From NCBI RefSeq assembly GCF_003334765.1, contig NZ_QOWT01000006.1: a stretch of DNA of 64,000 nt. One strand, given 5' to 3'. Both the position numbers and the translations under genes were made by a program. The notes under the pieces are model-generated. The model made no database searches. It saw only the letters and a list, made by a program, of their open reading frames with translations, and was not told the DNA's origin. This document shows, piece after piece, positions 5,999 to 47,260 of the stretch. The first letter of the stretch is position 1; every line of letters starts with the position of its first letter. Origin of the DNA: Escherichia coli (GTDB taxonomy: Bacteria > Pseudomonadota > Gammaproteobacteria > Enterobacterales > Enterobacteriaceae).

Positions 5999-6005
5999 GG
6001 CATCC

Positions 6006-6503
6006 TCAAATACATTTGAAATAATCGAAAGGTTCGCGGCAACTATCGCAGCGGTACAATGCTTTGCAGGCCGTGGAACCAAATTCACTGATAAGTGTGG
6101 TATGGACGCTGGCGCAGCGCGGGCAACGTACTTCTGGCGGCAAATGGGCATGGCAACTGTGTCCGGCGGGCGGGCTAATGCCATACTCTCGCAGACGCTC
6201 ACGGGCATCGGGGGTCATCCAGTCGGTGGTCCATGCCGGGTCGAGTTGCAGCACAACCTGAACGGGGGTAAACCCGTTGGTTGTCATTGCCTCACGTATC
6301 GCGCCAATCAAATGTTCCGTTGCCGGACAACCGGAATATGTCGGCGTAAAGCCGATCACCCATCCTTCTCCCATCTGTGTCACATTACGCACCATGCCTA
6401 AATCAGTAATGGTCAGCACCGGGATCTCCGGGTCCGGGATCTGGCTGAGTAGCGCCCATATCTCATGAACCTGTGGCGGTGCAATGGTGGCCAGACGTTG
6501 CAT
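6006..6503 (-). CDS. paaD: phenylacetate degradation protein PaaD
   Basis: Track ORF trimmed to ATG at 6501-6503 (MQRLATIAPP...), 165 aa. Confidence 0.85.
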   Translation of the reverse strand: MQRLATIAPPQVHEIWALLSQIPDPEIPVLTITDLGMVRNVTQMGEGWVIGFTPTYSGCPATEHLIGAIREAMTTNGFTPVQVVLQLDPAWTTDWMTPDARERLREYGISPPAGHSCHAHLPPEVRCPRCASVHTTLISEFGSTACKALYRCDSCREPFDYFKCI

Positions 6504-6517
6504 ACCCATCTCCTCTG

Positions 6518-7264: not shown

Positions 7265-7272
7265 TTCCGACC

Positions 7273-7560
7273 TCACATGTGCTCAATGCCATCAGGGATG
7301 GTGTAAAACGTTGGATGGCGATAGACCTTGCTTTCAGCCGGATCAAAAAATTCACCGCGTTCTTCCGGTTGCGAGGCAACAATTTCACTCGCCTTCACCA
7401 CCCAAATTGAACATCCTTCGCTACGACGGGTGTAAGCATCACGGGCATTTTCCAGTGCCATCCGCTCATCGGCAGCATGTAAACTGCCAACATGGCGGTG
7501 TGATAAGCCCTGTTTGCCACGCACGAAAACTTCGTATAACGGCCAGTAAACATTACTCAT
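7273..7560 (-). CDS. paaB: phenylacetyl-CoA 1,2-epoxidase subunit B
   Basis: 95-aa ORF; synteny between paaA and paaC. Confidence 0.9.
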   Translation of the reverse strand: MSNVYWPLYEVFVRGKQGLSHRHVGSLHAADERMALENARDAYTRRSEGCSIWVVKASEIVASQPEERGEFFDPAESKVYRHPTFYTIPDGIEHM

Positions 7561-7571
7561 TTTGAATCTCC

Positions 7572-8501
7572 TTATGCGACCTTACGGGCATGTTGTTTTT
7601 GTGCATGGGCCAGCGCTGCTTCCCGTACCCAGGTACCTTCTTCCCAGGCTTTACGTTTGGCGTCGAGCCTCTCCTGATTACAAATTCCGCGACCGTTAAT
7701 TACTTCGTTAAACTCCTGCCAGTCGATCTCACCAAAGCGGTAGTGACCGCTTTCAGTGTCAAAATGCAGATCCGGGTCAGGAACGGTCATACCGAGCATT
7801 TCAACCTGTGGAACGGTGTTATCCACGAAACGCTGGCGGAGTTCGTCGTTGGTGAAACGTTTGATTTTCCAGGTGAGACTTCTGGCGCTGTTTGGCGAGT
7901 TATCATCGTTTGGCCCGAACATCATTAAGGCTGGCCACCAGAAACGGTTAATGGCGTCTTGCAACATCTGCTTTTGAGCTTCGCTGCCCTGCGCCAGTGC
8001 CATGCAGGCTTCAAACCCCTGACGCTGGTGAAAACTCTCTTCTTTGCAGATTTTCACCATTGCTCTGGCATACGGGCCATAAGAAGTGCGGCATAACGCC
8101 ACCTGATTGACGATCGCTGCGCCATCCACCAGCCAGCCGATAACACCGATATCAGCCCAACTCAATGTCGGATAATTAAAGATGGAGGAATATTTCATCC
8201 GTCCGTCGAGCATTTTTTGGTAGATGTCTTCTCTGGCGCAGCCCAGTGTTTCGGCGGCGCTATAGAGATACAGACCATGACCGGCTTCATCCTGCACTTT
8301 GGCCAACAGAATGGCTTTACGCCGCAAGGTTGGTGCGCGAGTGATCCAGTTACCTTCAGGCAACATACCAACAATCTCGGAGTGCGCATGCTGCCCAATC
8401 TGGCGGATCAATGTCTTTCGGTAAGCATCGGGCATCCAGTCCTGTGGCTCGATAGCCGTTTCCTGGGCTATCCGTTGCTCAAAGCGTTCTTCTTGGGTCA
8501 C
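7572..8501 (-). CDS. paaA: phenylacetyl-CoA 1,2-epoxidase catalytic subunit A
   Basis: 309-aa ORF; the start codon read from the sequence is GTG (8499-8501); first gene of the paa catabolic operon. Confidence 0.9.
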
Positions 8502-8514
8502 GTCATCACCTTTA

Positions 8515-8553
8515 CGATTCCAGTTTTCGTGAATTAATTAAAAACACGAATCA
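8515..8553. promoter_or_regulatory. candidate PaaX operator in the paaA promoter (CGATTC-N27-GAATCA)
   Basis: Half-sites read at 8515-8520 and 8548-8553, just upstream of paaA start; resembles the PaaX inverted-repeat operator as recalled from literature. Confidence 0.35.
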
Positions 8554-8727
8554 CATTGTTTTATGAAAGTTACACAATAGTTAAGTAAAATCACAAATTT
8601 TGTATGTTTGAACTGTGACGGATTTCGCACCCTATTTTTATAAATCATTATTTATCAGTGCATTAATGTTTTCCGCAGTTGCTATACAGATCGCATAGTT
8701 AACATTTCGTTAAAAGATCCCTTGCTT

Positions 8728-8742
8728 TTTATGATTCGCGAT
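8728..8742. promoter_or_regulatory. candidate PaaX-type box in the paaZ promoter (TTTATGATTCGCGAT)
   Basis: TGATTCGCG core about 45 bp upstream of paaZ ATG in the divergent paaZ/paaA control region. Confidence 0.3.
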
Positions 8743-8785
8743 TTAACTATTAGCAACAGAAATGTGAAACATCTGGAGAGTAGCG

Positions 8786-10831
8786 ATGCAGCAGTTAGCC
8801 AGTTTCTTATCCGGTACCTGGCAGTCTGGCCGGGGCCGTAGCCGTTTGATTCACCACGCTATTAGCGGCGAGGCGTTATGGGAAGTGACCAGTGAAGGTC
8901 TTGATATGGCGGCTGCCCGCCAGTTTGCCATTGAAAAAGGTGCCCCCGCCCTTCGCGCTATGACCTTTATCGAACGTGCGGCGATGCTTAAAGCGGTCGC
9001 TAAACATCTGCTGAGTGAAAAAGAGCGTTTCTATGCTCTTTCTGCGCAAACAGGCGCAACGCGGGCAGACAGTTGGGTTGATATTGAAGGTGGCATTGGG
9101 ACGTTATTTACTTACGCCAGCCTCGGTAGCCGGGAGCTGCCTGACGATACGCTGTGGCCGGAAGATGAATTGATCCCCTTATCGAAAGAAGGTGGATTTG
9201 CCGCGCGCCATTTACTGACCTCAAAGTCAGGCGTGGCAGTGCATATTAACGCCTTTAACTTCCCCTGCTGGGGAATGCTGGAAAAGCTGGCACCAACGTG
9301 GCTGGGCGGAATGCCAGCCATCATCAAACCAGCTACCGCGACGGCCCAACTGACTCAGGCGATGGTGAAATCAATTGTCGATAGTGGTCTTGTTCCCGAA
9401 GGCGCAATTAGTCTGATCTGCGGTAGTGCTGGCGACTTGTTGGATCATCTGGACAGCCAGGATGTGGTGACTTTCACGGGGTCAGCGGCGACCGGACAGA
9501 TGCTGCGAGTTCAGCCAAATATCGTCGCCAAATCTATCCCCTTCACTATGGAAGCTGATTCCCTGAACTGCTGCGTACTGGGCGAAGATGTCACCCCGGA
9601 TCAACCGGAGTTTGCGCTGTTTATTCGTGAAGTTGTGCGTGAGATGACCACAAAAGCCGGGCAAAAATGTACGGCAATCCGGCGGATTATTGTGCCGCAG
9701 GCATTGGTTAATGCTGTCAGTGATGCTCTGGTTGCGCGATTACAGAAAGTCGTGGTCGGTGATCCTGCTCAGGAAGGCGTGAAAATGGGCGCACTGGTAA
9801 ATGCTGAGCAGCGTGCCGATGTGCAGGAAAAAGTGAACATATTGCTGGCTGCAGGATGCGAGATTCGCCTCGGTGGTCAGGCGGATTTATCTGCTGCGGG
9901 TGCCTTCTTCCCGCCAACCTTATTGTACTGTCCGCAGCCGGATGAAACACCGGCGGTACATGCAACAGAAGCCTTTGGCCCTGTCGCAACGCTGATGCCA
10001 GCACAAAACCAGCGACATGCTCTGCAACTGGCTTGTGCAGGCGGCGGTAGCCTTGCGGGAACGCTGGTGACGGCTGATCCGCAAATTGCGCGTCAGTTTA
10101 TTGCCGACGCGGCACGTACGCATGGGCGAATTCAGATCCTCAATGAAGAGTCGGCAAAAGAATCCACCGGGCATGGCTCCCCACTGCCACAACTGGTACA
10201 TGGTGGGCCTGGTCGCGCAGGAGGCGGTGAAGAATTAGGCGGTTTACGAGCGGTGAAACATTACATGCAGCGAACCGCTGTTCAGGGTAGTCCGACGATG
10301 CTTGCCGCTATCAGTAAACAGTGGGTGCGCGGTGCGAAAGTCGAAGAAGATCGTATTCATCCGTTCCGCAAATATTTTGAGGAGCTACAACCAGGCGACA
10401 GCCTGTTGACTCCCCGCCGCACAATGACAGAGGCCGATATTGTTAACTTTGCTTGCCTCAGCGGCGATCATTTCTATGCACATATGGATAAGATTGCTGC
10501 TGCCGAATCTATTTTCGGTGAGCGGGTGGTGCATGGGTATTTTGTGCTTTCTGCGGCTGCGGGTCTGTTTGTCGATGCCGGTGTCGGTCCGGTCATTGCT
10601 AACTACGGGCTGGAAAGCTTGCGTTTTATCGAACCCGTAAAGCCAGGCGATACCATCCAGGTGCGTCTCACCTGTAAGCGCAAGACGCTGAAAAAACAGC
10701 GTAGCGCAGAAGAAAAACCAACAGGTGTGGTGGAATGGGCTGTAGAGGTATTCAATCAGCATCAAACCCCGGTGGCGCTGTATTCAATTCTGACGCTGGT
10801 GGCCAGGCAGCACGGTGATTTTGTCGATTAA
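8786..10831 (+). CDS. paaZ: bifunctional oxepin-CoA hydrolase / 3-oxo-5,6-dehydrosuberyl-CoA semialdehyde dehydrogenase
   Basis: 681-aa ORF; aldehyde dehydrogenase N-domain plus C-terminal hotdog hydratase domain; divergent from paaA. Confidence 0.93.
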
Positions 10832-10843
10832 TCGGTGAATGAA

Positions 10844-10872
10844 GGGCAACGGCGAATAGTTGCCCTTTTATT
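10844..10872 (+). terminator. rho-independent terminator after paaZ
   Basis: GGGCAAC / GTTGCCC stem followed by TTTTATTT. Confidence 0.6.
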
Positions 10873-10883
10873 TCACTAAGTTT

Positions 10884-10898
10884 TGTGACGTTGTCACA
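10884..10898. promoter_or_regulatory. TGTGAC-N3-GTCACA inverted repeat in the tynA promoter, candidate FeaR site
   Basis: Inverted repeat read directly; same GTGACA motif recurs in the feaB-feaR intergenic region. Confidence 0.3.
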
Positions 10899-11078
10899 TT
10901 ATGCATGATGTGTACATCTATTTTCAGGGCATCCACTGTATGAAAAGCTGGCACACCTGCCAAACAACCTGGCAGGTGCAGGCAATCCCCTTTGCATCAG
11001 TACTGATAATGTGAACCTGACTAAACCGCCCACAGAGCGCGGTTGCTAACAAGAACACAACATCTGACGAGGTTAATA

Positions 11079-25167: not shown

Positions 25168-25195
25168 ATGCTCTGGATAAGGATTATCCAATTCT

Positions 25196-25306
25196 AAAAA
25201 AAAAGCCCGGACGACTGTTCGGGCTTGTCTTTTTATATGTTGGAAAATCAGTGGCAATGCAATGGCCCAACAGAAAATAAAATCTGTGACAATAAAGGCA
25301 TATAAC
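25196..25306 (-). ncRNA. micC: MicC small RNA (Hfq-dependent repressor of ompC)
   Basis: Reverse complement matches the recalled MicC sequence (GTTATATGCCTTTATTGTCACAG...), ending in a GCCCGGACG hairpin plus U-run; divergent from ompN. Confidence 0.8.
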
Positions 25307-25533
25307 CCGCGCAGAATAACGTATAGCAAATTAAAAGTATAATTTTTATTTTGTATGTATTATCTTCGATACATTCACCAGACTTATTATCATTTCAGAG
25401 GAATTATTTGATTAAGGTTTTACTTAAGGCGTAACAAATGATATTTATCGGCTAACTGAACTTCTCCTTTAGGATGTTTTCACTCCCCGAAATGGGGATA
25501 AAAGGCAAATAAAATAACTAAAGGATTTATTCA

Positions 25534-26726: not shown

Positions 26727-27242
<516 letters not shown>

Positions 27243-27248
27243 CACTAA

Positions 27249-27275
27249 CGCCCGCACATTGCTGCGGGCTTTTTG
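27249..27275 (+). terminator. rho-independent terminator of uspF
   Basis: CCCGCA / TGCGGG hairpin followed by TTTTT. Confidence 0.65.
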
Positions 27276-27418
27276 ATTCATTTCGCAAATGTGCTGACAT
27301 TTTCCCCTCTAATCCGTACCATACACGCCACAGTTTTTTATATCAGATTTCTTATGCTGGGCGTTCCGGCATGACGCATACTCTTCTGATGCCATATAAC
27401 GAATTGAGTCGCTTTTAA

Positions 27419-28354
27419 ATGTCGCAAAATCAAGAAATTAGTAAGAAAGAACAATACAACCTGAACAAATTACAAAAACGTCTGCGTCGTAACGTGGGCG
27501 AAGCCATTGCTGACTTCAATATGATTGAAGAAGGCGATCGCATCATGGTTTGCCTCTCCGGGGGTAAAGACAGCTATACCATGCTGGAGATTCTGCGCAA
27601 TTTGCAGCAAAGCGCGCCAATCAATTTTTCGCTGGTGGCTGTTAACCTCGATCAAAAGCAACCGGGCTTCCCGGAACACGTTCTGCCCGAGTATCTTGAA
27701 AAGCTGGGCGTTGAGTACAAGATTGTTGAAGAGAATACTTACGGTATCGTGAAAGAGAAGATTCCAGAGGGCAAAACCACTTGCTCACTGTGTTCTCGCC
27801 TTCGTCGCGGTATCCTTTATCGTACCGCAACGGAACTGGGGGCGACGAAGATCGCGTTGGGTCACCATCGTGACGATATCCTGCAAACGTTGTTCTTAAA
27901 TATGTTCTACGGCGGTAAGATGAAAGGTATGCCTCCGAAACTGATGAGCGATGATGGCAAACATATCGTTATTCGTCCGCTGGCCTACTGCCGCGAGAAA
28001 GATATTCAGCGATTTGCCGATGCAAAAGCGTTCCCGATTATTCCGTGCAACCTGTGCGGTTCACAGCCTAACCTGCAACGTCAGGTGATTGCTGACATGT
28101 TGCGTGACTGGGATAAACGTTATCCAGGGCGTATCGAGACGATGTTCAGCGCGATGCAGAATGTGGTGCCGTCGCATCTGTGCGATACCAACCTGTTCGA
28201 TTTCAAAGGCATCACCCACGGTTCTGAAGTGGTTAACGGGGGTGATCTGGCGTTTGATCGCGAAGAGATCCCACTACAACCGGCGTGCTGGCAGCCAGAA
28301 GAAGATGAAAATCAGTTGGATGAGTTACGGCTGAATGTGGTTGAAGTGAAATAA
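27419..28354 (+). CDS. ttcA: tRNA 2-thiocytidine(32) synthetase
   Basis: 311-aa ORF with SGGKDS PP-loop motif and CxxC pairs; uninterrupted native 3' end. Confidence 0.92.
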
Positions 28355-28357
28355 CCA

Positions 28358-28448
28358 GGATAGCGCCCGATGCGCAAGCGTATCGGGCTACTCTTATGGA
28401 GGCCGGATAAGACGCGGCCAGCGTCGCATCCGGCAATCCCGAATAAGA
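28358..28448. repeat. REP/BIME repetitive extragenic palindromes
   Basis: GCCGGATAAGACGCGGCCAGCGTCGCATCCGGCA-type units read between ttcA and dbpA. Confidence 0.8.
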
Positions 28449-28482
28449 TGTTTACTCTTGCACCCGGCAATTCAACATTTCA

Positions 28483-29856
28483 TTATTTTAATAACCGCAC
28501 CCGGCACGTTTTTCCTTTAATCTTCCCGCCCTGTAACTGTTTCCATGCTTTATGAGCAACAGCCTGACGGACCGCGACATAGACATGCGCCGGATGCACG
28601 GCGATTTTGCCAATATCTGCGCCATCAAGCCCGATATCTCCTGTCAGTGCACCTAATACATCACCCGGGCGCATTTTGGCTTTTTTCCCGCCATCGATAC
28701 ACAACGTTGCCATTTCTGCTTCCAGCGTCGCAATGGAACTATTAGCTGGCGGCGTTTGCCAGTTAAGTTTTATCTGCAACATGTCAGAAATGATATTGGC
28801 CCGCTGTGCTTCTTCCGGAGCACAGAAACTGATCGCCAGACCGCTATTTCCTGCACGAGCTGTACGACCGATGCGATGTACATGAACTTCAGGGTCCCAC
28901 GCCAGCTCAAAGTTCACCACCAGCTCAAGCGATTTAATATCCAGACCACGCGCAGCAACATCAGTCGCGACCAGTACACGGGCGCTACCGTTAGCAAAAC
29001 GTACCAGGGTCTGATCGCGATCGCGTTGCTCCAAATCGCCGTGTAATGACAATGCACTTTGCCCTACTTCATTCAGCGCGTCGCAGACAGCCTGGCAATC
29101 TTTTTTGGTATTGCAAAACACCACGCAAGAGGATGGCTGATGCAAGCTTAATAACCGTTGCAACAGAGGAATTTTGCCTTTGCTGGATGTCTCATAAAAT
29201 TGTTGTTCAATGGGTGGCAAAGCATCTGTTGAGTCAATTTCAATCGCCAAAGGATCGCGTTGCACTCGTCCGCTGATTGCAGCGATGGCTTCCGGCCAGG
29301 TTGCCGAAAACAGAAGCGTCTGTCGAGATGCAGGCGCAAAACGGATGACATCATCAATGGCATCGCTAAATCCCATATCCAGCATGCGGTCGGCCTCATC
29401 CATCACCAGCGTATTCAACGCATCCAGTGATACCGTGCCTTTTTGCAGGTGATCCAGCAAACGCCCCGGCGTTGCCACGATAATATGCGGCGCATGTTGC
29501 AACGAATCACGCTGCATACCGAACGGTTGACCACCGCACAACGTCAAAATTTTGGTATTTGGCAGAAAACGCGCCAGCCGACGCAATTCACCTGCCACCT
29601 GATCCGCCAGTTCACGCGTAGGACACAGCACTAAAGCCTGGGTTTGAAATAGCGACGCATCAATTTGCTGTAACAAGCCGAGGCCAAAAGCCGCCGTTTT
29701 GCCGCTGCCGGTTTTCGCCTGCACGCGAACATCTTTTCCGGCAAGGATCGCCGGAAGCGCGGCGGCCTGCACCGGCGTCATGGTTAAATAACCCAACTCA
29801 TTAAGGTTCGTGAGTTGGGCGGGAGGCAAAACATTCAGGGTAGAAAAAGCGGTCAC
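28483..29856 (-). CDS. dbpA: ATP-dependent DEAD-box RNA helicase (23S rRNA hairpin 92 specific)
   Basis: 457-aa ORF with Walker A (AKTGSGKT), DEAD and SAT motifs. Confidence 0.93.
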   Translation of the reverse strand: MTAFSTLNVLPPAQLTNLNELGYLTMTPVQAAALPAILAGKDVRVQAKTGSGKTAAFGLGLLQQIDASLFQTQALVLCPTRELADQVAGELRRLARFLPNTKILTLCGGQPFGMQRDSLQHAPHIIVATPGRLLDHLQKGTVSLDALNTLVMDEADRMLDMGFSDAIDDVIRFAPASRQTLLFSATWPEAIAAISGRVQRDPLAIEIDSTDALPPIEQQFYETSSKGKIPLLQRLLSLHQPSSCVVFCNTKKDCQAVCDALNEVGQSALSLHGDLEQRDRDQTLVRFANGSARVLVATDVAARGLDIKSLELVVNFELAWDPEVHVHRIGRTARAGNSGLAISFCAPEEAQRANIISDMLQIKLNWQTPPANSSIATLEAEMATLCIDGGKKAKMRPGDVLGALTGDIGLDGADIGKIAVHPAHVYVAVRQAVAHKAWKQLQGGKIKGKTCRVRLLK

Positions 29857-29885
29857 AATCTATTCTCGTGGTCATCGACGCAAAG

Positions 29886-30059
29886 TTAGCAGGCGCGTAT
29901 CCTCGCAGATCTACGCTCACGATGCGACAATTTAATCGGTTCTTCATCGGGTGGTGGGTCAGGCATGGGTTGCGGGCGAGGGATCGGATCGGGCACTGGA
30001 ACAGGATCGCCAGGAATCGGTTCAGGGACAGGAATTTGCAAATAAATAAGTGTCGTCAT
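29886..30059 (-). CDS. 57-codon proline-rich small ORF (MTTLIYLQIPVPEPIPGDPVPVPDPIPRPQPMPDPPPDEEPIKLSHRERRSARIRAC)
   Basis: ATG preceded by GAGGG Shine-Dalgarno at about 5 nt; too short for the ORF track; lies between fnrS and the dbpA start. Confidence 0.45.
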   Translation of the reverse strand: MTTLIYLQIPVPEPIPGDPVPVPDPIPRPQPMPDPPPDEEPIKLSHRERRSARIRAC

Positions 30060-30116
30060 ATTTCCCTCTGGTCATTGGGTGGACTCTTAAAGGGTAGACG
30101 CTGATAAATAACAGGC

Positions 30117-30238
30117 AAAAAAAAGCCGACTCATCAAAGTCGGCGTCGTACGAATCAATTGTGCTATGCAGTAATTCAAAAAAGGAAGTAAGACAATATG
30201 GAGCGCAACGCCCATCGCTTGACGTTGCATTCACCTGC
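30117..30238 (-). ncRNA. fnrS: FnrS small RNA (FNR-activated, Hfq-dependent)
   Basis: Reverse complement matches the recalled FnrS sequence (GCAGGTGAATGCAACGTCAAGCGATGGGCG...), ending in a GCCGACT hairpin plus U-run; about 122 nt. Confidence 0.75.
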
Positions 30239-30273
30239 AAGAGAGATATTGCCCTGAATGGGTAGAGAGTTTA

Positions 30274-30287
30274 TTGACTTCGCTCAA
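30274..30287. promoter_or_regulatory. FNR box (TTGAC-N4-CTCAA) centred about 42 bp upstream of the fnrS 5' end
   Basis: Near-consensus FNR half-sites at class II activation spacing. Confidence 0.55.
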
Positions 30288-30333
30288 ACTTTGCGGCGTT
30301 TTTGTATACAGACAGCCGGAAAAATTGCTTTTG

Positions 30334-31338
<1,005 letters not shown>

Positions 31339-31571
31339 TTATTTTGTAGTCTAGCCTTCTGGCCCTGTTACGCAACATCTCATCACCCCATTACCCTGAA
31401 ATGATTAATAAAATTCTGTCTAAATTGAATACAAAAAGCAAAATGCTTTTCCGTATACAAACCGTGTGAAGTGTTAAATAGCGTCTATCATTATCAGAAT
31501 TATCTGATCATATGACGTGGCTTTTTTGCGATCGGATAGCAACAAAAATTGATAAAAATAACGGGATCTCA

Positions 31572-32804
31572 ATGATTACGCACAACTTCAATACCCTGGA
31601 CTTACTCACCAGTCCTGTCTGGATCGTTTCGCCCTTTGAGGAACAGTTAATTTATGCCAATAGCGCGGCGAAACTGTTGATGCAAGACCTCACGTTTAGT
31701 CAGCTACGAACCGGACCCTATTCCGTCTCCTCACAAAAAGAACTGCCGAAATACCTCTCCGATCTGCAAAACCAACACGATATTATCGAAATCCTCACTG
31801 TTCAGCGTAAAGAAGAGGAAACAGCATTGAGCTGTCGGCTTGTTTTGCGAAAGCTGACAGAAACAGAACCGGTGATTATTTTCGAAGGTATCGAAGCGCC
31901 GGCAACGCTGGGTTTAAAAGCCAGTCGCTCGGCAAATTATCAGCGCAAAAAACAAGGTTTTTATGCGCGCTTTTTTCTGACTAACTCTGCACCAATGTTG
32001 TTGATTGACCCGTCACGAGATGGACAAATCGTCGATGCTAACCTCGCCGCGCTCAATTTCTATGGTTATAACCATGAAACGATGTGCCAGAAACATACCT
32101 GGGAAATAAATATGCTCGGGCGTCGCGTCATGCCTATCATGCATGAAATCTCGCATTTACCCGGTGGTCATAAACCTTTGAATTTTGTTCATAAACTGGC
32201 GGATGGTTCGACTCGTCATGTGCAGACCTATGCCGGACCGATTGAAATTTATGGCGACAAGCTCATGTTATGTATTGTGCATGATATTACTGAGCAAAAA
32301 CGGCTGGAGGAGCAGCTGGAACATGCTGCTCACCATGACGCGATGACCGGATTACTGAATCGGCGACAGTTTTATCACATTACGGAACCAGGCCAAATGC
32401 AGCATCTCGCCATCGCTCAGGATTACAGCTTGTTGCTCATCGACACCGATCGTTTTAAACACATTAACGATCTCTATGGGCATTCTAAAGGTGATGAGGT
32501 GTTATGCGCCCTCGCCCGCACCCTCGAAAGTTGCGCTCGCAAAGGCGATTTGGTGTTTCGTTGGGGAGGCGAAGAGTTTGTCTTATTGCTACCAAGAACC
32601 CCACTGGATACCGCGCTTTCGCTGGCTGAAACTATCCGCGTAAGCGTGGCAAAAGTGAGTATTTCGGGCTTACCACGCTTTACCGTCAGCATTGGTGTGG
32701 CGCATCACGAAGGAAATGAAAGCATCGATGAACTGTTTAAACGCGTTGATGATGCTTTGTATCGGGCGAAAAATGATGGACGCAACCGCGTGCTGGCGGC
32801 ATAA
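31572..32804 (+). CDS. dgcM: PAS-domain diguanylate cyclase
   Basis: Track ORF trimmed to ATG at 31572 (MITHNFNTLDLL...), 410 aa; GGEEF motif present. Confidence 0.9.
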   Translation: MITHNFNTLDLLTSPVWIVSPFEEQLIYANSAAKLLMQDLTFSQLRTGPYSVSSQKELPKYLSDLQNQHDIIEILTVQRKEEETALSCRLVLRKLTETEPVIIFEGIEAPATLGLKASRSANYQRKKQGFYARFFLTNSAPMLLIDPSRDGQIVDANLAALNFYGYNHETMCQKHTWEINMLGRRVMPIMHEISHLPGGHKPLNFVHKLADGSTRHVQTYAGPIEIYGDKLMLCIVHDITEQKRLEEQLEHAAHHDAMTGLLNRRQFYHITEPGQMQHLAIAQDYSLLLIDTDRFKHINDLYGHSKGDEVLCALARTLESCARKGDLVFRWGGEEFVLLLPRTPLDTALSLAETIRVSVAKVSISGLPRFTVSIGVAHHEGNESIDELFKRVDDALYRAKNDGRNRVLAA

Positions 32805-32824
32805 GCCGCGGATGCGTCTCGAGA

Positions 32825-33388
32825 TCAACGACTGCGCTTAGCGTGGCGCTCCCAGTTTTCTTGCTTCGCCTGCGCCGTTTTACGTAGTGCGACGTAACAC
32901 GCCCCGCTGCCGCCATGATGCGGTAGCGCGGTGCAATATGCCTGAACATCATCAAATTCGGTCAGCCAGCGCGCCACATAGCTGCGGACAATATTGGCAT
33001 GCGATTTATCATCCCGCCCTTTACCATGAATAATCAGCACGTTACGCAAACCATCCGCCAGGGCTTGTTGAATAAAACTGAACACCATTTTGCGGCACTC
33101 TTCCACCGGCTGGCGCAAAAGATTCAGGCTCGCCTGTTGCGGATATTTACCACTGCGCAGCTTATCCAGCACCCCATGTTGCAACCCTTCCCGCCGAAAC
33201 TCCAGCGGCTGACTTAGTGGGATGATGTCGAGAAATCCGGTGGTGAGGAAATTATCAAGCTGCAGCGTGTCGATACGCTGCGGCGCACGTTGGTTACGCG
33301 TTGGATGCCAGTGGACATCGGTAGCACGTTTCAGCGGCTGGACATCTTCCATGGCGTCAAGAAACAGCGATTTGTCGTCAAGGTTCAT
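32825..33388 (-). CDS. smrA: Smr-domain putative endonuclease
   Basis: 187-aa ORF; Smr-domain-like C-terminal region; synteny. Confidence 0.85.
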   Translation of the reverse strand: MNLDDKSLFLDAMEDVQPLKRATDVHWHPTRNQRAPQRIDTLQLDNFLTTGFLDIIPLSQPLEFRREGLQHGVLDKLRSGKYPQQASLNLLRQPVEECRKMVFSFIQQALADGLRNVLIIHGKGRDDKSHANIVRSYVARWLTEFDDVQAYCTALPHHGGSGACYVALRKTAQAKQENWERHAKRSR

Positions 33389-33615
33389 GTTACATCCTCC
33401 CGCAATTAAGAGCGCGATATGATAACCAGACCGGGTCGGTCCAACAACGTATTACCCAAATTTCCAGTAATAAGTTCCAAATATTGCCGATATTTTAAGC
33501 AAAATACTTATGCATGATTATTCATTCACGATATTAATAATGTAACTTATATTTTCGTGAAATCTGTCACTGAAGAAAATTGGCAACTAAAGGTTAAAAC
33601 CGTTATAACACAGTC

Positions 33616-33709
33616 ACCGGCGCAGAGGAGACAATGCCGGATTTAAGACGCGGATGCACTGCTGTGTGTACTGTAGAGTCTGGCGGATGTCGACAGACTC
33701 TATTTTTTT
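33616..33709 (+). ncRNA. mcaS: McaS (IsrA) small RNA
   Basis: Matches the recalled McaS sequence ACCGGCGCAGAGGAGACAATGCCGGATTTAAGACGCGGATGCACTG... with GGA motifs and a terminal hairpin plus U7. Confidence 0.8.
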
Positions 33710-33717
33710 ATGCAGTT

Positions 33718-34626
33718 TTAACTTTGCAGATAGCCGCATTCTCGCCGGAATTGCGTGATTAATGACGCGGTCAGTGGTGTCTGGCGACTATCACGCCGCT
33801 GAATCAAATAATAGGCCGCTTTCGGTAAAATTTCGCTAACCGGCAACATCACCAGCCCCTGTCCGTGCAAGGGATCGCAGCCCATTTCTTCAGGCAGTAT
33901 GCTGAGAAAATCGCTTTTTGCCACCAGACTGATACAGGCTGAGAACGTCTCGCAGACTACACCGACCTGTGGCGTTTGCGCCTGATCGTCAAGCAATTCA
34001 CTCAACTGTTTGTAGTAGCTGCCGTGTGGCGTCGGCATTGTCCAGCTGTAATCCAGTAACTGTTTGATCGAACGGGCACCAATGGCGGGGTGTCCCGGGC
34101 GGCAAAAGATCGCGAATTGCTTTTCCAGTAATTTCTCAAAAGTAAATTCGTGGTCGTACGGTCCCTGATAATAGGTATTGATGGTGAAATCCAATTCTCC
34201 CTGACGCAATTCATTAATCATCGACACCAGTTGCCCTTCCATAATGCGTACTTTTACCTGCGGATGCTGCTGATGAAAACGAGATATGACAGCTGGCATC
34301 AGACTGCGGGAAATACTGGCCCCCATGCCGATATTAATCTGCCCTGCCAGTTGCCCTTGTCGTTGGCGAATATCCTCTTGGGCTGCGCGCAGCTCTTCAA
34401 GAATTAGACTGGCGTGCTGATAAAAACTTTCACCGGCATCAGTTAACGTCACGCCTTTACTACGGCGAAAAAAGAGTTGCGCCGCTAACCCTTCTTCTAG
34501 CTCCTGAATAGATTTACTCAGTGCCGGTTGCGACATATTCAACATTCGGCTCGCTCCGCGAATGCTGCCCTGACGAGCCACTTCAACAAAAGCCCGAATT
34601 TGATGAATTTTTACCTGAAAAGCCAT
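33718..34626 (-). CDS. abgR: LysR-family regulator of the abg operon
   Basis: 302-aa ORF with N-terminal LysR HTH; divergent from abgA. Confidence 0.9.
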   Translation of the reverse strand: MAFQVKIHQIRAFVEVARQGSIRGASRMLNMSQPALSKSIQELEEGLAAQLFFRRSKGVTLTDAGESFYQHASLILEELRAAQEDIRQRQGQLAGQINIGMGASISRSLMPAVISRFHQQHPQVKVRIMEGQLVSMINELRQGELDFTINTYYQGPYDHEFTFEKLLEKQFAIFCRPGHPAIGARSIKQLLDYSWTMPTPHGSYYKQLSELLDDQAQTPQVGVVCETFSACISLVAKSDFLSILPEEMGCDPLHGQGLVMLPVSEILPKAAYYLIQRRDSRQTPLTASLITQFRRECGYLQS

Positions 34627-34801
34627 GACGCCACCGATAACCGTTATTTATCAGACCAAAGAAACTGGCATCTACTTTAATGCAGATGATTGTGTCAGGG
34701 TAATTTATGAACGGTTAAAACTGTGAAAAATCAGTTAGTGATAAGTAAAAACTATCGCTACGTGAACCGGGTCACACTTTTTACTGATGACGGGAAAGGT
34801 T

Positions 34802-36112
34802 ATGGAGTCTTTGAATCAATTTGTTAATTCGCTTGCCCCAAAATTATCGCACTGGCGACGTGATTTTCATCACTATGCAGAGTCTGGCTGGGTGGAATTC
34901 CGCACTGCCACCCTTGTTGCGGAAGAATTGCACCAGCTCGGCTATTCACTGGCGCTGGGTCGCGAAGTAGTTAATGAAAGTAGCCGGATGGGATTACCTG
35001 ATGAATTCACTCTACAACGCGAATTCGAGCGCGCTCGTCAACAGGGTGCGCTAGCACAATGGATTGCGGCTTTTGAAGGTGGTTTCACTGGTATCGTCGC
35101 CACCCTGGATACCGGTCGCCCCGGTCCGGTGATGGCTTTCCGTGTCGATATGGACGCGCTGGATCTCAGTGAAGAGCAGGATGTCAGCCATCGCCCCTAC
35201 CGCGACGGTTTTGCGTCATGTAACGCCGGAATGATGCATGCCTGTGGTCATGATGGACATACCGCCATTGGGCTTGGGCTGGCGCATACCCTTAAACAGT
35301 TCGAGTCCGGACTACATGGCGTCATCAAACTGATTTTTCAGCCTGCAGAGGAAGGTACGCGTGGCGCGCGGGCGATGGTCGATGCAGGTGTCGTAGATGA
35401 TGTTGATTATTTTACTGCCGTGCACATTGGCACTGGCGTACCTGCGGGCACCGTGGTGTGCGGCAGTGATAATTTTATGGCAACCACCAAATTTGACGCG
35501 CACTTCACCGGTACCGCCGCTCACGCAGGCGCAAAACCAGAAGACGGTCACAATGCCTTGTTGGCGGCAGCACAAGCCACTCTTGCACTGCATGCAATCG
35601 CCCCGCACAGCGAAGGAGCTTCCAGAGTAAACGTGGGCGTTATGCAGGCAGGAAGCGGTCGTAACGTTGTTCCTGCCTCGGCGTTGCTGAAAGTGGAAAC
35701 ACGCGGGGCCAGCGACGTCATTAATCAATATGTTTTTGACCGTGCACAACAAGCGATTCAGGGCGCAGCAACCATGTATGGTGTCGGCGTTGAAACTCGT
35801 CTGATGGGTGCAGCTACCGCCAGTTCTCCTTCGCCGCAATGGGTCGCATGGTTGCAAAGTCAGGCGGCTCAGGTCGCGGGGGTCAATCAGGCCATTGAAC
35901 GTGTTGAAGCGCCTGCGGGTTCCGAAGATGCCACATTAATGATGGCCCGCGTGCAGCAACATCAAGGGCAAGCCTCCTACGTGGTGTTTGGCACACAGCT
36001 GGCGGCAGGTCATCACAACGAAAAATTCGATTTTGACGAGCAGGTTCTCGCTATTGCCGTCGAAACGCTGGCGCGCACCGCGCTCAATTTTCCCTGGACG
36101 CGAGGTATCTGA
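34802..36112 (+). CDS. abgA: p-aminobenzoyl-glutamate hydrolase subunit A (M20 peptidase)
   Basis: Track ORF trimmed to ATG at 34802 (MESLNQFVNSL...), 436 aa. Confidence 0.9.
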   Translation: MESLNQFVNSLAPKLSHWRRDFHHYAESGWVEFRTATLVAEELHQLGYSLALGREVVNESSRMGLPDEFTLQREFERARQQGALAQWIAAFEGGFTGIVATLDTGRPGPVMAFRVDMDALDLSEEQDVSHRPYRDGFASCNAGMMHACGHDGHTAIGLGLAHTLKQFESGLHGVIKLIFQPAEEGTRGARAMVDAGVVDDVDYFTAVHIGTGVPAGTVVCGSDNFMATTKFDAHFTGTAAHAGAKPEDGHNALLAAAQATLALHAIAPHSEGASRVNVGVMQAGSGRNVVPASALLKVETRGASDVINQYVFDRAQQAIQGAATMYGVGVETRLMGAATASSPSPQWVAWLQSQAAQVAGVNQAIERVEAPAGSEDATLMMARVQQHQGQASYVVFGTQLAAGHHNEKFDFDEQVLAIAVETLARTALNFPWTRGI

Positions 36113-37557
36113 TGCAGGAAATCTATCGTTTTATCGACGATGCGATTGAAGCCGATCGCCAACGTTATACCGATATTGCCGATCAAATCTGGGATCATCC
36201 AGAAACACGTTTTGAAGAGTTCTGGTCAGCGGAGCATCTGGCTTCGGCGCTGGAATCTGCAGGCTTCACCGTTACCCGCAACGTAGGCAATATCCCAAAT
36301 GCCTTTATTGCTTCGTTTGGTCAAGGCAAACCGGTTATCGCCCTGCTGGGAGAATATGACGCCCTGGCAGGTTTAAGTCAGCAAGCAGGTTGCGCGCAAC
36401 CTACATCCGTGACGCCCGGTGAAAATGGTCACGGTTGCGGACACAATTTGCTGGGAACCGCCGCCTTTGCCGCTGCAATAGCCGTCAAGAAATGGCTGGA
36501 ACAATATGGGCAAGGCGGCACGGTGCGCTTTTATGGTTGTCCTGGCGAAGAAGGCGGCTCGGGTAAAACGTTCATGGTTCGCGAGGGGGTATTTGATGAT
36601 GTGGATGCGGCACTCACCTGGCACCCGGAAGCCTTTGCCGGTATGTTCAATACCCGCACGCTGGCAAACATTCAGGCATCATGGCGCTTTAAAGGGATCG
36701 CAGCACATGCCGCGAATTCCCCTCATTTGGGACGCAGCGCCCTTGATGCCGTAACGTTGATGACCACTGGCACCAACTTCCTCAACGAACATATTATTGA
36801 AAAAGCGCGCGTACACTATGCCATCACAAATAGCGGCGGGATCTCGCCCAACGTGGTCCAGGCGCAGGCAGAAGTGCTTTATCTTATCCGCGCCCCCGAA
36901 ATGACCGACGTGCAGCATATTTATGATCGGGTCGCCAAAATCGCCGAAGGTGCGGCATTGATGACCGAAACCACGGTTGAATGCCGCTTCGACAAAGCCT
37001 GTTCCAGTTATCTCCCGAATCGCACCTTAGAAAATGCCATGTACCAGGCCCTATCCCATTTTGGTACCCCGGAATGGAACTCCGAAGAACTGGCTTTTGC
37101 GAAACAAATTCAGGCTACGCTCACCTCCAACGATCGGCAAAACAGTCTGAATAATATCGCCGCAACCGGTGGCGAAAACGGCAAGGTTTTTGCACTACGT
37201 CATCGTGAAACGGTACTGGCGAATGAAGTCGCTCCATATGCCGCCACCGATAACGTGCTTGCGGCATCGACTGATGTCGGCGACGTCAGTTGGAAACTGC
37301 CTGTTGCCCAGTGTTTCAGCCCCTGTTTTGCCGTCGGTACACCGCTACATACGTGGCAACTGGTTAGCCAGGGGCGAACATCTATTGCTCATAAAGGAAT
37401 GCTGCTGGCGGCGAAAACTATGGCAGCAACCACAGTCAATCTCTTCCTTGATTCAGGGCTATTGCAAGAATGCCAACAAGAGCATCAGCAAGTAACGGAC
37501 ACGCAACCGTATCACTGCCCTATCCCGAAAAACGTGACACCGTCACCTTTAAAATAA
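36112..37557 (+). CDS. abgB: p-aminobenzoyl-glutamate hydrolase subunit B (M20 peptidase)
   Basis: 481-aa ORF; start overlaps abgA stop (ATGA). Confidence 0.9.
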   Translation: MQEIYRFIDDAIEADRQRYTDIADQIWDHPETRFEEFWSAEHLASALESAGFTVTRNVGNIPNAFIASFGQGKPVIALLGEYDALAGLSQQAGCAQPTSVTPGENGHGCGHNLLGTAAFAAAIAVKKWLEQYGQGGTVRFYGCPGEEGGSGKTFMVREGVFDDVDAALTWHPEAFAGMFNTRTLANIQASWRFKGIAAHAANSPHLGRSALDAVTLMTTGTNFLNEHIIEKARVHYAITNSGGISPNVVQAQAEVLYLIRAPEMTDVQHIYDRVAKIAEGAALMTETTVECRFDKACSSYLPNRTLENAMYQALSHFGTPEWNSEELAFAKQIQATLTSNDRQNSLNNIAATGGENGKVFALRHRETVLANEVAPYAATDNVLAASTDVGDVSWKLPVAQCFSPCFAVGTPLHTWQLVSQGRTSIAHKGMLLAAKTMAATTVNLFLDSGLLQECQQEHQQVTDTQPYHCPIPKNVTPSPLK

Positions 37558-37593
37558 CAACAACAACGCAAACACAACAACCGAGGAATGCCC

Positions 37594-39120
37594 ATGAGTA
37601 TGTCATCCATACCGTCGTCCTCCCAATCCGGGAAGCTCTATGGCTGGGTCGAAAGAATTGGTAACAAGGTTCCCCATCCTTTTCTGCTCTTTATCTATTT
37701 GATTATCGTACTCATGGTGACGACGGCAATTTTGTCGGCCTTTGGCGTCAGTGCGAAAAACCCGACCGATGGTACGCCGGTCGTGGTGAAAAACCTGCTC
37801 AGTGTGGAAGGATTACACTGGTTTTTACCCAATGTTATTAAAAACTTTAGCGGTTTTGCTCCACTTGGTGCGATCCTGGCGCTGGTTTTAGGTGCCGGTC
37901 TGGCGGAGCGCGTCGGCTTACTGCCAGCACTAATGGTTAAAATGGCATCGCATGTTAATGCCCGCTACGCCAGTTATATGGTGCTGTTTATTGCTTTTTT
38001 CAGCCACATTTCTTCCGATGCGGCGTTAGTGATCATGCCACCGATGGGTGCGCTGATTTTTCTGGCGGTGGGCAGGCATCCAGTTGCAGGTTTACTGGCT
38101 GCCATTGCAGGCGTAGGTTGCGGCTTTACGGCTAATTTACTGATTGTCACAACCGACGTGTTGCTGTCGGGGATCAGCACGGAAGCGGCAGCTGCGTTCA
38201 ATCCGCAAATGCACGTCAGTGTAATTGATAACTGGTATTTTATGGCCAGCTCCGTAGTCGTACTGACGATTGTTGGCGGCCTGATAACCGACAAAATCAT
38301 CGAGCCACGGTTAGGTCAATGGCAGGGAAACAGCGATGAGAAACTGCAGACATTGACCGAAAGTCAGCGTTTTGGTTTACGCATAGCAGGTGTCGTATCG
38401 CTACTTTTTATTGCTGCGATTGCGCTGATGGTGATCCCGCAAAACGGGATATTGCGCGATCCGATTAATCACACCGTGATGCCATCACCCTTTATTAAAG
38501 GTATCGTGCCACTGATCATTCTTTTTTTCTTTGTTGTCTCGCTGGCTTATGGCATCGCTACCCGCACAATTCGACGTCAGGCGGATTTACCGCATTTAAT
38601 GATTGAACCGATGAAAGAGATGGCGGGATTTATCGTGATGGTTTTTCCCCTCGCCCAATTTGTCGCCATGTTTAACTGGAGCAACATGGGGAAATTCATC
38701 GCCGTGGGGCTGACCGATATACTGGAAAGTTCAGGGCTTAGCGGCATCCCGGCGTTTGTCGGTCTGGCGTTGCTTTCCTCTTTCTTATGCATGTTTATTG
38801 CCAGCGGTTCCGCAATCTGGTCGATTCTTGCCCCCATTTTCGTACCAATGTTTATGCTACTTGGCTTTCACCCGGCATTTGCGCAAATCCTCTTTCGTAT
38901 TGCCGACTCATCCGTATTGCCTTTAGCGCCGGTATCTCCTTTTGTTCCACTGTTTCTTGGATTCCTGCAACGCTACAAACCAGACGCGAAACTGGGTACT
39001 TACTATTCGTTAGTCTTGCCCTATCCACTTATCTTTTTGGTGGTATGGCTGCTGATGTTGCTGGCGTGGTATCTTGTCGGTCTGCCGATAGGTCCGGGTA
39101 TTTACCCACGTTTGTCTTAA
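37594..39120 (+). CDS. abgT: p-aminobenzoyl-glutamate transporter
   Basis: Track ORF trimmed to ATG at 37594 (MSMSSIPSS...), 508 aa; polytopic membrane protein. Confidence 0.88.
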
Positions 39121-39130
39121 GAGAGAACGG

Positions 39131-39646
39131 ATGCTGAGATTACTTGAAGAAAAAATTGCCACGCCACTGGGTCCACTGTGGGTGATTTGCGATGAGCAAT
39201 TTCGCCTGCGGGCGGTTGAATGGGAAGAGTACAGCGAACGCATGGTGCAGCTGCTGGACATCCATTATCGCAAAGAAGGCTATGAGCGCATTTCTGCCAC
39301 CAATCCAGGCGGTTTAAGCGACAAGCTTCGTGAATATTTTGCCGGTAATCTTAGCATTATTGATACGCTTCCCACTGCTACGGGGGGGACGCCATTTCAG
39401 CGCGAAGTCTGGAAAACACTACGCACTATCCCCTGCGGGCAGGTAATGCATTACGGCCAACTGGCTGAGCAATTGGGCCGTCCTGGCGCGGCGCGTGCCG
39501 TTGGTGCGGCAAACGGATCGAATCCCATCAGCATCGTCGTACCTTGCCATCGGGTTATTGGCCGAAACGGCACCATGACCGGATATGCAGGCGGAGTTCA
39601 GCGAAAAGAGTGGTTATTGCGCCATGAAGGTTATCTTTTGCTGTAA
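39131..39646 (+). CDS. ogt: O6-alkylguanine-DNA alkyltransferase
   Basis: 171-aa ORF with PCHRV active-site motif. Confidence 0.93.
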
Positions 39647-39807
39647 ACATTAAACAATTTGTGCCAGCTTGTTCACACTTTTATGTAAAGTTACCCTTAA
39701 CAACTTAAGGGTTTTCAAATAGATAGACATATATTTACATCTAATATCGGAATTCTCTGCTGTTAAGGTTTGCTTAGACTTACTTGCTCCCTAAAAAGAT
39801 GTTAAAA

Positions 39808-39821
39808 TTGACAAATATCAA
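39808..39821. promoter_or_regulatory. FNR box (TTGAC-AAAT-ATCAA) in the fnr promoter (autoregulation)
   Basis: Consensus FNR site 20-33 bp upstream of the fnr ATG. Confidence 0.7.
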
Positions 39822-39840
39822 TTACGGCTTGAGCAGACCT

Positions 39841-40593
39841 ATGATCCCGGAAAAGCGAATTATACGGCGCATTCAGTCTGGCGGTTGTGCTATCCATTGC
39901 CAGGATTGCAGCATCAGCCAGCTTTGCATCCCGTTCACACTCAACGAACATGAGCTTGATCAGCTTGATAATATCATTGAGCGGAAGAAGCCTATTCAGA
40001 AAGGCCAGACGCTGTTTAAGGCTGGTGATGAACTTAAATCGCTTTATGCCATCCGCTCCGGTACGATTAAAAGTTATACCATCACTGAGCAAGGCGACGA
40101 GCAAATCACTGGTTTCCATTTAGCAGGCGACCTGGTGGGATTTGACGCCATCGGCAGCGGCCATCACCCGAGCTTCGCGCAGGCGCTGGAAACCTCGATG
40201 GTATGTGAAATCCCGTTCGAAACGCTGGACGATTTGTCCGGTAAAATGCCGAATCTGCGTCAGCAGATGATGCGTCTGATGAGCGGTGAAATCAAAGGCG
40301 ATCAGGACATGATCCTGCTGTTGTCGAAGAAAAATGCCGAGGAACGTCTGGCTGCATTCATCTACAACCTGTCCCGTCGTTTTGCCCAACGCGGCTTCTC
40401 CCCTCGTGAATTCCGCCTGACGATGACTCGTGGCGATATCGGTAACTATCTGGGCCTGACGGTAGAAACCATCAGCCGTCTGCTGGGTCGCTTCCAGAAA
40501 AGCGGCATGCTGGCAGTCAAAGGTAAATACATCACCATCGAAAATAACGATGCGCTGGCCCAGCTTGCTGGTCATACGCGTAACGTTGCCTGA
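39841..40593 (+). CDS. fnr: fumarate/nitrate reduction global regulator FNR
   Basis: Track ORF trimmed to ATG at 39841 ([29 protein letters not shown]...), 250 aa; N-terminal Cys cluster. Confidence 0.95.
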
Positions 40594-40744
40594 TTTTTCC
40601 GCATAACTCACTATCCTTCTGTCATATCATTAAATTTTTCTGATTTATTGATCTGGCAGAAGGTTCATCACTGTTTCATTCACCAGATATGGGTTAATCT
40701 TTTAATTACAAACTGCGTTGACAGTTGTTGTAAGGAGACCCTGT

Positions 40745-41695
40745 ATGGCTATGTATCAGAACATGCTCGTTGTTATCGATCCTAACCAGGACGACCAACC
40801 AGCATTGCGGCGAGCTGTTTATTTACATCAACGGATTGGTGGCAAAATTAAAGCCTTTTTGCCGATCTATGACTTCTCATACGAAATGACCACCCTGCTC
40901 TCCCCGGACGAACGTACCGCTATGCGTCAGGGCGTCATCAGCCAGCGTACAGCCTGGATCCACGAGCAGGCAAAATATTATCTCAATGCTGGCGTTCCCA
41001 TTGAAATTAAAGTGGTCTGGCATAACCGTCCTTTCGAAGCCATCATTCAGGAAGTGATCAGCGGCGGACACGATTTGGTGCTAAAAATGGCGCACCAACA
41101 TGACCGTCTGGAAGCGGTGATTTTTACGCCAACGGACTGGCATCTGTTACGCAAATGCCCAAGCCCGGTGTGGATGGTGAAAGACCAGCCGTGGCCGGAA
41201 GGAGGCAAGGCGCTGGTGGCGGTGAATCTCGCCAGTGAAGAGCCGTATCATAATGCGCTCAATGAAAAACTGGTCAAAGAGACGATCGAACTGGCAGAAC
41301 AAGTCAACCATACCGAAGTTCATCTGGTTGGCGCTTATCCGGTAACGCCAATTAATATCGCGATTGAACTGCCGGAATTTGACCCGAGCGTTTATAACGA
41401 TGCCATTCGTGGGCAACATTTGCTGGCAATGAAAGCCCTGCGGCAGAAATTCGGCATTAATGAAAACATGACGCACGTAGAAAAAGGTCTGCCAGAAGAG
41501 GTGATTCCTGATTTGGCGGAGCACTTACAGGCGGGGATTGTGGTTCTGGGCACGGTAGGACGCACCGGTATTTCAGCAGCATTCCTCGGCAACACGGCGG
41601 AACAGGTGATTGATCATCTTCGCTGCGACCTGCTGGTCATTAAACCTGACCAGTATCAGACACCCGTTGAACTGGATGACGAAGAAGACGATTAA
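40745..41695 (+). CDS. uspE: tandem-domain universal stress protein E
   Basis: Track ORF trimmed to ATG at 40745 ([12 protein letters not shown]...), 316 aa. Confidence 0.9.
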
Positions 41696-41715
41696 CGACT
41701 CTTCAATAACTGACA

Positions 41716-41742
41716 AGGCCCGAGTTATCGGGCCTATTTTTT
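41716..41742. terminator. rho-independent terminator between uspE and ynaJ
   Basis: AGGCCCGA / TCGGGCCT hairpin followed by TTTTTT. Confidence 0.7.
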
Positions 41743-41744
41743 AC

Positions 41745-42002
41745 TTACTGCTCTTCGCCGCCAAGGAAATAAATTCCCAACGGGATTGCCAGCAACACAG
41801 TAAAGACCAGGCTATAAACAAAAATCATCGATGACTGAATCACATACATTGATGTCGTCCACTCAGACAGCGGAATATTGTACTGTTCTATAACGCCGCC
41901 GATGGTCGCGCGAGTCACAACCGACGCCGCAATAATGAAAACCGCCAACAAACCAAAGAGAAATTTCTTCCCTTTCGCTGACTTCAGTTTCGCCATAATC
42001 AT
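41745..42002 (-). CDS. ynaJ: DUF2534 small inner-membrane protein
   Basis: 85-aa ORF with two predicted transmembrane segments; synteny. Confidence 0.8.
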   Translation of the reverse strand: MIMAKLKSAKGKKFLFGLLAVFIIAASVVTRATIGGVIEQYNIPLSEWTTSMYVIQSSMIFVYSLVFTVLLAIPLGIYFLGGEEQ

Positions 42003-42245
42003 GATGTAATCCTTGTGCAGACAAATTTCTTGTTACCTAAACGTAACAATACCATGACATTTCACCGTTGTCTGCTCTGAAAACCTCACCTCTTAGCTGG
42101 ATTTACAATCAACGCATTGATTAGTTAGCTAATGTTGCTACTTCCTTCCCTGACTATTGATGATCTGAATGAATTGTCGCGGTAAAATAGCCCCGCCAGG
42201 GGTTTCCGGCATGACGACAATTATCTGGAGGAGCCTGATAAAACA

Positions 42246-46302: not shown

Positions 46303-47260
46303 ATGAGGAACGGAATGATGAATAATAAAGTCAGCTTCACTAACAGCAATAATCCAACCATCTCTTTGTCTGCAGTGATCTATTTCCCTCCAAAATTTGA
46401 TGAAACCCGTCAGTATCAGGCAATTGTGTTATCTCACCCAGGTGGGGGCGTTAAAGAACAAACGGCCGGAACCTATGCCAAAAAACTGGCGGAAAAGGGA
46501 TTTGTCACTATTGCTTATGACGCATCTTATCAAGGTGAAAGTGGCGGCGAGCCGCGTCAGTTAGAAAACCCATACATTCGTACTGAAGACATCAGTGCCG
46601 TGATTGATTACCTGACAACGCTTTCTTATGTCGACAATACCCGAATTGGTGCGATGGGAATTTGTGCCGGTGCAGGATATACAGCCAATGCTGCAATTCA
46701 GGATCGCCGCATCAAGGCCATCGGTACCGTTAGTGCGGTCAATATTGGTTCGATATTCCGTAATGGTTGGGAAAACAATGTGAAATCTATTGATGCCCTG
46801 CCATACGTTGAAGCGGGTTCAAACGCCAGAACCAGCGATATTAGCAGCGGAGAATACGCCATTATGCCACTGGCACCAATGAAGGAGTCCGATGCGCCGA
46901 ACGAAGAACTGCGTCAGGCCTGGGAGTATTACCACACCCCTCGCGCGCAGTATCCAACAGCACCGGGTTACGCTACTTTGCGCAGCCTTAAGTTACGCTA
47001 CTTTGCGCAGCCTTAACCAGATTATTACCTATGATGCTTACCATATGGCGGAAGTGTACCTGACTCAGCCGACGCAGATTGTGGCGGGCAGCCAGGCAGG
47101 GAGCAAATGGATGAGTGACGACCTGTACGATCGAGCATCAAGCCAGGATAAACGCTATCACATTGTTGAAGGCGCAAACCATATGGATCTTTATGACGGC
47201 AAAGCCTATGTGGCTGAAGCAATTTCAGTATTAGCTCCGTTCTTTGAGGAAACTCTGTAA
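46303..47260 (+). pseudogene. ycjY: ycjY (dienelactone hydrolase / S9-like hydrolase) disrupted by a 25-bp tandem duplication
   Basis: Track ORFs 46303..47016 and 46892..47260 are in different frames; deleting one 25-bp copy fuses them into one ORF of about 310 codons. Confidence 0.8.
46967..47016 (+). repeat. perfect 25-bp tandem duplication (GTTACGCTACTTTGCGCAGCCTTAA x2) inside ycjY
   Basis: Read directly at 46967-46991 and 46992-47016. Confidence 0.95.

Follow-up and report, generated by a model that had tools for sequence, protein, structure and literature searches.

The Rac attachment site in the 5′ end of ttcA is unoccupied in a natural close relative of Escherichia coli K-12

To all appearances, and with little room for doubt, the interval between uspF and dbpA in this E. 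coli is an unoccupied attB for Rac-type lambdoid prophages, located in the 5′ end of an intact ttcA in a natural close relative of K-12. In the window, by which we mean the whole stretch of 64,000 nucleotides that was analysed, uspF (26808..27242, + strand), ttcA (27419..28354, + strand), two REP-like palindromes and dbpA (28483..29856, − strand) follow one another without intervening phage DNA. A first, sequence-only reading of this DNA had described the same gene order, a full ttcA of 311 codons and a Rac attachment site that is unoccupied and lacks integrase and phage genes, and all of these claims held up in the analyses below. An empty ttcA site is already known and in itself of minor importance. 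Our result identifies the strain as a natural close K-12 relative that is Rac-free at ttcA, and it corrects the position of the Rac target within the gene.

The genes flanking the site were identified from the open reading frames and from NCBIfam matches. uspF encodes universal stress protein F (144 aa) and matches equivalog NF011581 over its full length (302 bits, cutoff 166), and dbpA, which is convergent with ttcA, encodes a 457-aa ATP-dependent RNA helicase that matches NF008744 (770.6 bits, cutoff 524). Between them lies the gene for tRNA 2-thiocytidine(32) synthetase. Its 311-codon product gave a full-length match to the TtcA equivalog NF007972 (513.5 bits, cutoff 272) and aligned with MG1655 TtcA without gaps, with 307 of 311 residues identical. 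The alignment contains SGGKDS at residues 47–52, CSLC at 122–125 and CNLC at 210–213, which are the PP-loop motif and the two CxxC cysteine motifs of the TtcA family. We conclude that the open reading frame encodes TtcA, with a predicted tRNA s2C32 activity. Downstream, the 128-bp ttcA–dbpA spacer (28355–28482) shows no base differences from MG1655. It carries the REP-like palindromes GCCCGATGCGCAAGCGTATCGGGC (28365–28388, + strand) and GCCGGATGCGACGCTGGCCGCGTCTTATCCGGC (28402–28434, − strand), the second inverted relative to the first as in a BIME-like pair; both fit a regular expression derived from the REP consensus of E. coli, and the MG1655 feature table gave no REP annotation for comparison.

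In MG1655, Rac is inserted at the 5′ end of ttcA, not at the 3′ end. The gene (1411013..1411948, minus strand) abuts intR on the side of its start codon, with intR beginning 51 bp past that codon, and the annotated prophage (1411899..1434958, 23,060 bp) takes in the first 50 nt of ttcA. At the opposite end of the prophage, next to uspF, 51 nt of the ttcA 5′ end are left as ttcC (1434958..1435008). The sequence-only reading was right to place a ttcA remnant, ttcC, next to uspF in MG1655; in placing the integration of Rac at the ttcA 3′ end, it named the wrong end. The annotation of the Rac target should be corrected accordingly to the ttcA 5′ end, at codons 9–17.

To place the junctions at the level of single bases, we walked into the site from both sides. 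Moving rightward from uspF, the window follows the uspF/ttcC side of MG1655 through position 27468, inclusive; moving leftward from inside ttcA, it follows the ttcA side of MG1655 back to 27443. The bases in common form a 26-bp identity core, AAGAAAGAACAATACAACCTGAACAA (27443..27468, + strand), which is shared by both K-12 junctions and corresponds to ttcA codons 9–17. The full segment of ttcA that Rac duplicates is 50 nt long (27419..27468, + strand), as delimited by the walks from both sides, the alignment and the MG1655 annotation. Over these 50 nt the window is identical to the K-12 ttcC remnant (50/50). Compared with the phage-supplied 5′ end of K-12 ttcA, it differs at 27422–27425, 27434 and 27441–27442, and at all seven of these diagnostic positions it has the chromosomal (ttcC) base and not the phage one. 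Because every difference to the left of the core segregates cleanly between the two junctions, strand exchange by IntR probably takes place inside the 26-bp core. The core is present in a single copy in the 64-kb window when up to three mismatches are allowed, and no match was found in 100 shuffles. A single-copy core was what the sequence-only reading had proposed to confirm, which we could do, but within the ttcA 3′ end, where the core does not lie. Its remark that no duplicated ttcA 3′ end is present needs correction in one detail: the duplication in K-12 that matters concerns the 5′ end.

These features fit a simple model of integration. Rac-type phages carry a 50-nt imitation of the start of ttcA (the start codon and 16 codons) that matches the chromosome exactly in its final 26 nt. 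K-12 retains both versions of these 50 nt, the chromosomal one next to uspF as ttcC and the phage one at the head of the working ttcA. The sequence shows that the phage supplies the start codon, the first 8 codons and the upstream region for ttcA, and that integration leaves the gene whole and strands its original 5′ end as ttcC. In the model, the tyrosine integrase IntR would exchange strands within the 26-bp core, and integration would thereby swap the promoter region, ribosome-binding site and first 8 codons of ttcA for phage sequence, with four residue changes as the outcome. In the window, the chromosomal 5′ version is joined directly to the rest of ttcA, and the TtcA′ form described below is encoded behind the native upstream region. 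We predict that the ttcA site should still be a target for Rac-like phages.

Prophages that carry a replacement end of their target gene are familiar from phage 21 in icd and from P22 and many others in tRNA genes. Like them, Rac has in its attachment region a duplicate of one end of the gene that it targets, and this gene stays intact. It differs from them in that the 5′ end is what is replaced, start codon and expression signals included, and in that the copy is imperfect, such that four residues are changed.

The four residues at which the window protein departs from K-12 TtcA are at positions 2, 3, 6 and 8, where the N terminus reads MSQNQEIS in place of MQENQQIT (K-12 continues as MQENQQITKK). 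Liu et al. 2015 (Sci Rep 5:16074, PMC4632033) described Rac as lying between ttcA and ttcC and showed experimentally that its excision alters four residues near the TtcA N terminus, owing to an imperfect match of the two attachment sites. They reported that strains without a rac-like prophage in ttcA have the same TtcA′ that K-12 makes on excision, which they termed restoring the "ancient copy", and that TtcA and TtcA′ behave differently under carbenicillin. The window protein is this published TtcA′ variant, and our finding is thus a re-observation of a state already described. In the strains treated in that study, K-12 BW25113 delta-rac and HS, IAI1, UMN026 and ATCC 8739, uspF–ttcA is uninterrupted and TtcA′ is encoded, as in the window; there is no difference of substance from these Rac-free strains, and the background of the window is unusually near K-12. 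The MG1655 lysogen (uspF–ttcC–Rac–intR–ttcA–dbpA) has flanks and spacers about 99.97% identical to those of the window, the same core and the same ttcA from codon 9 onwards. It differs in its 23,060-bp prophage, in its two copies of the core and in the start of ttcA, where the phage supplies the first 24 nt and the region upstream, whereas the window has one copy of the core and a chromosomal first 24 nt and upstream region.

The native upstream region of ttcA is the 176-bp uspF–ttcA spacer (27243..27418, + strand), which is identical to the uspF–ttcC spacer of MG1655 and is the region displaced by phage DNA in Rac lysogens. A terminator scan of this spacer found a terminator-like hairpin with a T run for uspF (27250–27269). 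Expression of ttcA from the native spacer in the window, and with it synthesis of TtcA′ from the gene's own promoter, is a prediction. A promoter scan of the region returned one site (27294–27322) that scored 9/12, a score that shuffled sequence reached as well, and the number of sites did not exceed that in shuffled sequence. In an Rfam scan of the window, we found only the small RNA genes MicC (25189–25309, − strand), FnrS (30121–30238, − strand) and McaS (33616–33711, + strand), all full length, and no match at the ttcA site.

We aligned MG1655 1370000–1470000 to the whole 64-kb window and found that three collinear blocks span it entirely (1–27468, 27426–42128 and 42125–64000, with identities of 99.975%, 99.966% and 99.872%). 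The two sequences are about 99.97% identical and collinear throughout, apart from two large differences: the window has neither the 23-kb Rac nor IS5F. Because the three alignments cover the whole window, there is no room for prophage genes. Consistent with this, a blastn search of the 64-kb window with MG1655 Rac (23,060 bp) gave a sole match of 43 bp (27426–27468), which is the attachment arm, and no integrase, intR, xisR or phage genes are present in the interval or elsewhere in the 64 kb. The sequence-only reading had stated that the strain lacks the Rac-encoded functions recET, trkG and ralR; this holds for the locus and for the 64-kb window, which is the scope of the evidence.

We found that the empty site is common. 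Among the 5411 complete E. coli genomes with a match, uspF–ttcA–dbpA is in one piece in 2488 (46%), a K-12-type intR adjoins ttcA in 1834, and the K-12-type right end of Rac lies beside uspF in 843; other or mosaic integrases occupy the same site in the remaining genomes. Over 25 kb spanning the site, the window matches many isolates of human, pig, cattle and water origin at 100% identity. The window also carries a rare marker, a perfect 25-bp tandem duplication (GTTACGCTACTTTGCGCAGCCTTAA twice, 46967–47016) inside ycjY, which splits this 306-aa hydrolase gene into two open reading frames (46303..47016 and 46892..47260). MG1655, LAU-OXA and 0H18 have the 25-bp sequence once and ycjY intact. 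Of 5238 matching genomes, about 53 carry the duplication, which is therefore a marker of a natural clade. At least six isolates (BS74R-D, H3, SHP24, EH09-18-41, VE-F10 and O157:H16 98-3133) combine the duplication with an uninterrupted 100% match, and the empty site is therefore common to a natural clade.

The occupants of the site vary from strain to strain: in PK13 and 0H18 the cargo consists of transporters and regulators, and in LAU-OXA it comprises lysis genes, a nuclease and a methyltransferase. LAU-OXA, a natural Rac-positive strain, differs from the window by two non-attachment SNPs over 21.2 kb of flank and has the window alleles at both sites where MG1655 departs. Its Rac-like prophage (1–20043 of the retrieved segment) has 11.3 kb, from intR to ydaV, in common with K-12 Rac, at 99.46% identity. 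The MG1655 and LAU-OXA copies differ by 61 mismatches over the 11.3 kb. Of these, 45 fall within about 1.1 kb at a mosaic junction, and the other 16 are scattered across about 10 kb, with none in the last 2.2 kb next to ttcA. Beyond the mosaic junction, the cargo of the LAU-OXA prophage differs from that of K-12 Rac and includes a holin, an endolysin, a nuclease, a cytosine methyltransferase and Hok/Gef. The chromosomal flanks of the same two strains differ at about four sites over the 14.7 kb compared in both. Rac carriage varies between almost identical chromosomal backgrounds, and near-identical strains that differ in Rac are natural near-isogenic pairs for studying what the prophage costs or contributes. 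Other candidates for such comparisons were rejected: PK13 and 0H18 have flanks that are only about 99% identical, which is too distant for recent history, and TP6-2, considered as an independent natural Rac-positive relative, has IS5 at the K-12 position between ynaJ and ynaI together with MG1655 alleles, which makes it K-12-like rather than independent.

The sequence-only reading had called the configuration of the window ancestral. As a name for the sequence state the term is right, because ttcA of the window opens with the same 50 nt that K-12 has retained, as ttcC, from before integration. As a statement about the history of the strain it goes beyond what the sequence can show, since precise excision by IntR and XisR regenerates exactly the same bases. 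We considered two histories. That the lineage was never occupied, with the Rac-type prophages of K-12 and LAU-OXA gained later and separately, has in our view an even chance of being correct. It agrees with the 5′ arm of the window being the pre-integration sequence, with the empty site being the commonest single state (46% of genomes) and with this state being clade-wide, given at least six natural isolates that join the rare ycjY duplication to an uninterrupted site. In addition, to judge from the mismatches between MG1655 and LAU-OXA, the two prophages look less closely related to each other than their hosts do. However, Rac is excision-proficient and its precise excision would leave an identical sequence, recombination with incoming lambdoid phages could also produce the extra prophage divergence, and the few flank SNPs form a star pattern in which no site groups two of the three lineages. 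Only about four positions are informative when the window, MG1655 and LAU-OXA are compared, and each of them is private to one lineage. The excess of prophage divergence over flank divergence is suggestive and leans towards separate acquisitions on an empty ancestor, although it is not decisive, with 45 of the 61 mismatches at the mosaic junction.

The second history, in which the lineage once held Rac and lost it by precise IntR/XisR excision that restored the original ttcA 5′ end, has a chance that we place somewhat under even. Liu et al. reported that Rac is excision-proficient and that its excision regenerates exactly this attB and TtcA′, and close relatives do carry Rac at the site, with LAU-OXA separated from the window by two non-attachment SNPs in 21 kb and K-12 by 10 SNPs in 64 kb. 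Excision is free of scars, however, and leaves nothing in the sequence that could reveal a past prophage; the loss would also have to precede a clade of natural isolates, and the Rac copies of the relatives are not identical to one another. Returning to the never-occupied history, a more specific version of it is that the window represents the immediate pre-integration chromosome of the K-12 lineage, with K-12 and relatives such as LAU-OXA each lysogenized after parting from this nearly identical lineage without Rac. We hold this version tentatively, with a little less than even confidence. If it is true, K-12 Rac would be a recent lysogenization, not the multi-million-year resident "fossil" as which it is often described; the age of Rac quoted by Liu et al. 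is more than 4.5 Myr.

It is unlikely, in our estimate, that the site is empty and yet Rac-type functions (recET, kilR and a trkG-like gene) are provided by a Rac-like prophage elsewhere in the genome. Such an arrangement has a precedent in CFT073, whose rac is integrated at a site other than ttcA (PMC4632033), and Rac-like prophages are mosaic with varied cargo, as in PK13, 0H18 and LAU-OXA.

At a finer scale, 10 SNPs outside the attachment arm and several other changes separate the window from MG1655. One A is absent at window position 19402 relative to MG1655 1443025, in the ldhA–ydbH intergenic region. With one additional C, at 56414, ycjV is an intact open reading frame of 360 aa (56291..57373, − strand), free of the K-12 frameshift that gives the ycjV/ymjB pseudogenes. 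IS5F, which lies between ynaI and ynaJ in K-12, is also missing, and its intact target is seen at 42125–42128 as a 4-bp overlap of alignment blocks. Of the three K-12 markers IS5F, the ycjV frameshift and Rac, the window has none. A laboratory strain of K-12 from which Rac had been cured or deleted would have the 99.97% flank identity to MG1655 but is a highly improbable source, given the absence of IS5F and of the ycjV frameshift, the 10 SNPs, the 1-bp indel and the 25-bp duplication, and given that the K-12-like TP6-2 has IS5 here plus MG1655 alleles, in contrast to the window. IS5F, ycjV and the SNPs were the grounds on which a delta-rac laboratory derivative of K-12 was rejected. The window is natural E. 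coli and comes from a very close K-12 relative, not from a K-12 derivative.

We also noted features of the more distant genomes. In 0H18, the Rac-like element beside uspF (1871–13680 of the retrieved segment) begins with IS1, and its cargo of an MFS transporter, a gamma-glutamylcyclotransferase, a LysR regulator and a BCCT transporter replaces the tail/trkG region of K-12; on the other flank, a second IS1 truncates abgT. In PK13, an element of about 10.4 kb between smrA and abgR (27478–37857 of the retrieved segment) looks like a phage satellite, with genes for an integrase, a RepA-family helicase, an Icd-like protein, a capsid protein, a head-decoration protein and a small terminase. The flank alignments of PK13 overlap by 20 bp at window positions 33526–33545, about 70 bp from the McaS gene, which marks an apparent second empty integration site in the window.
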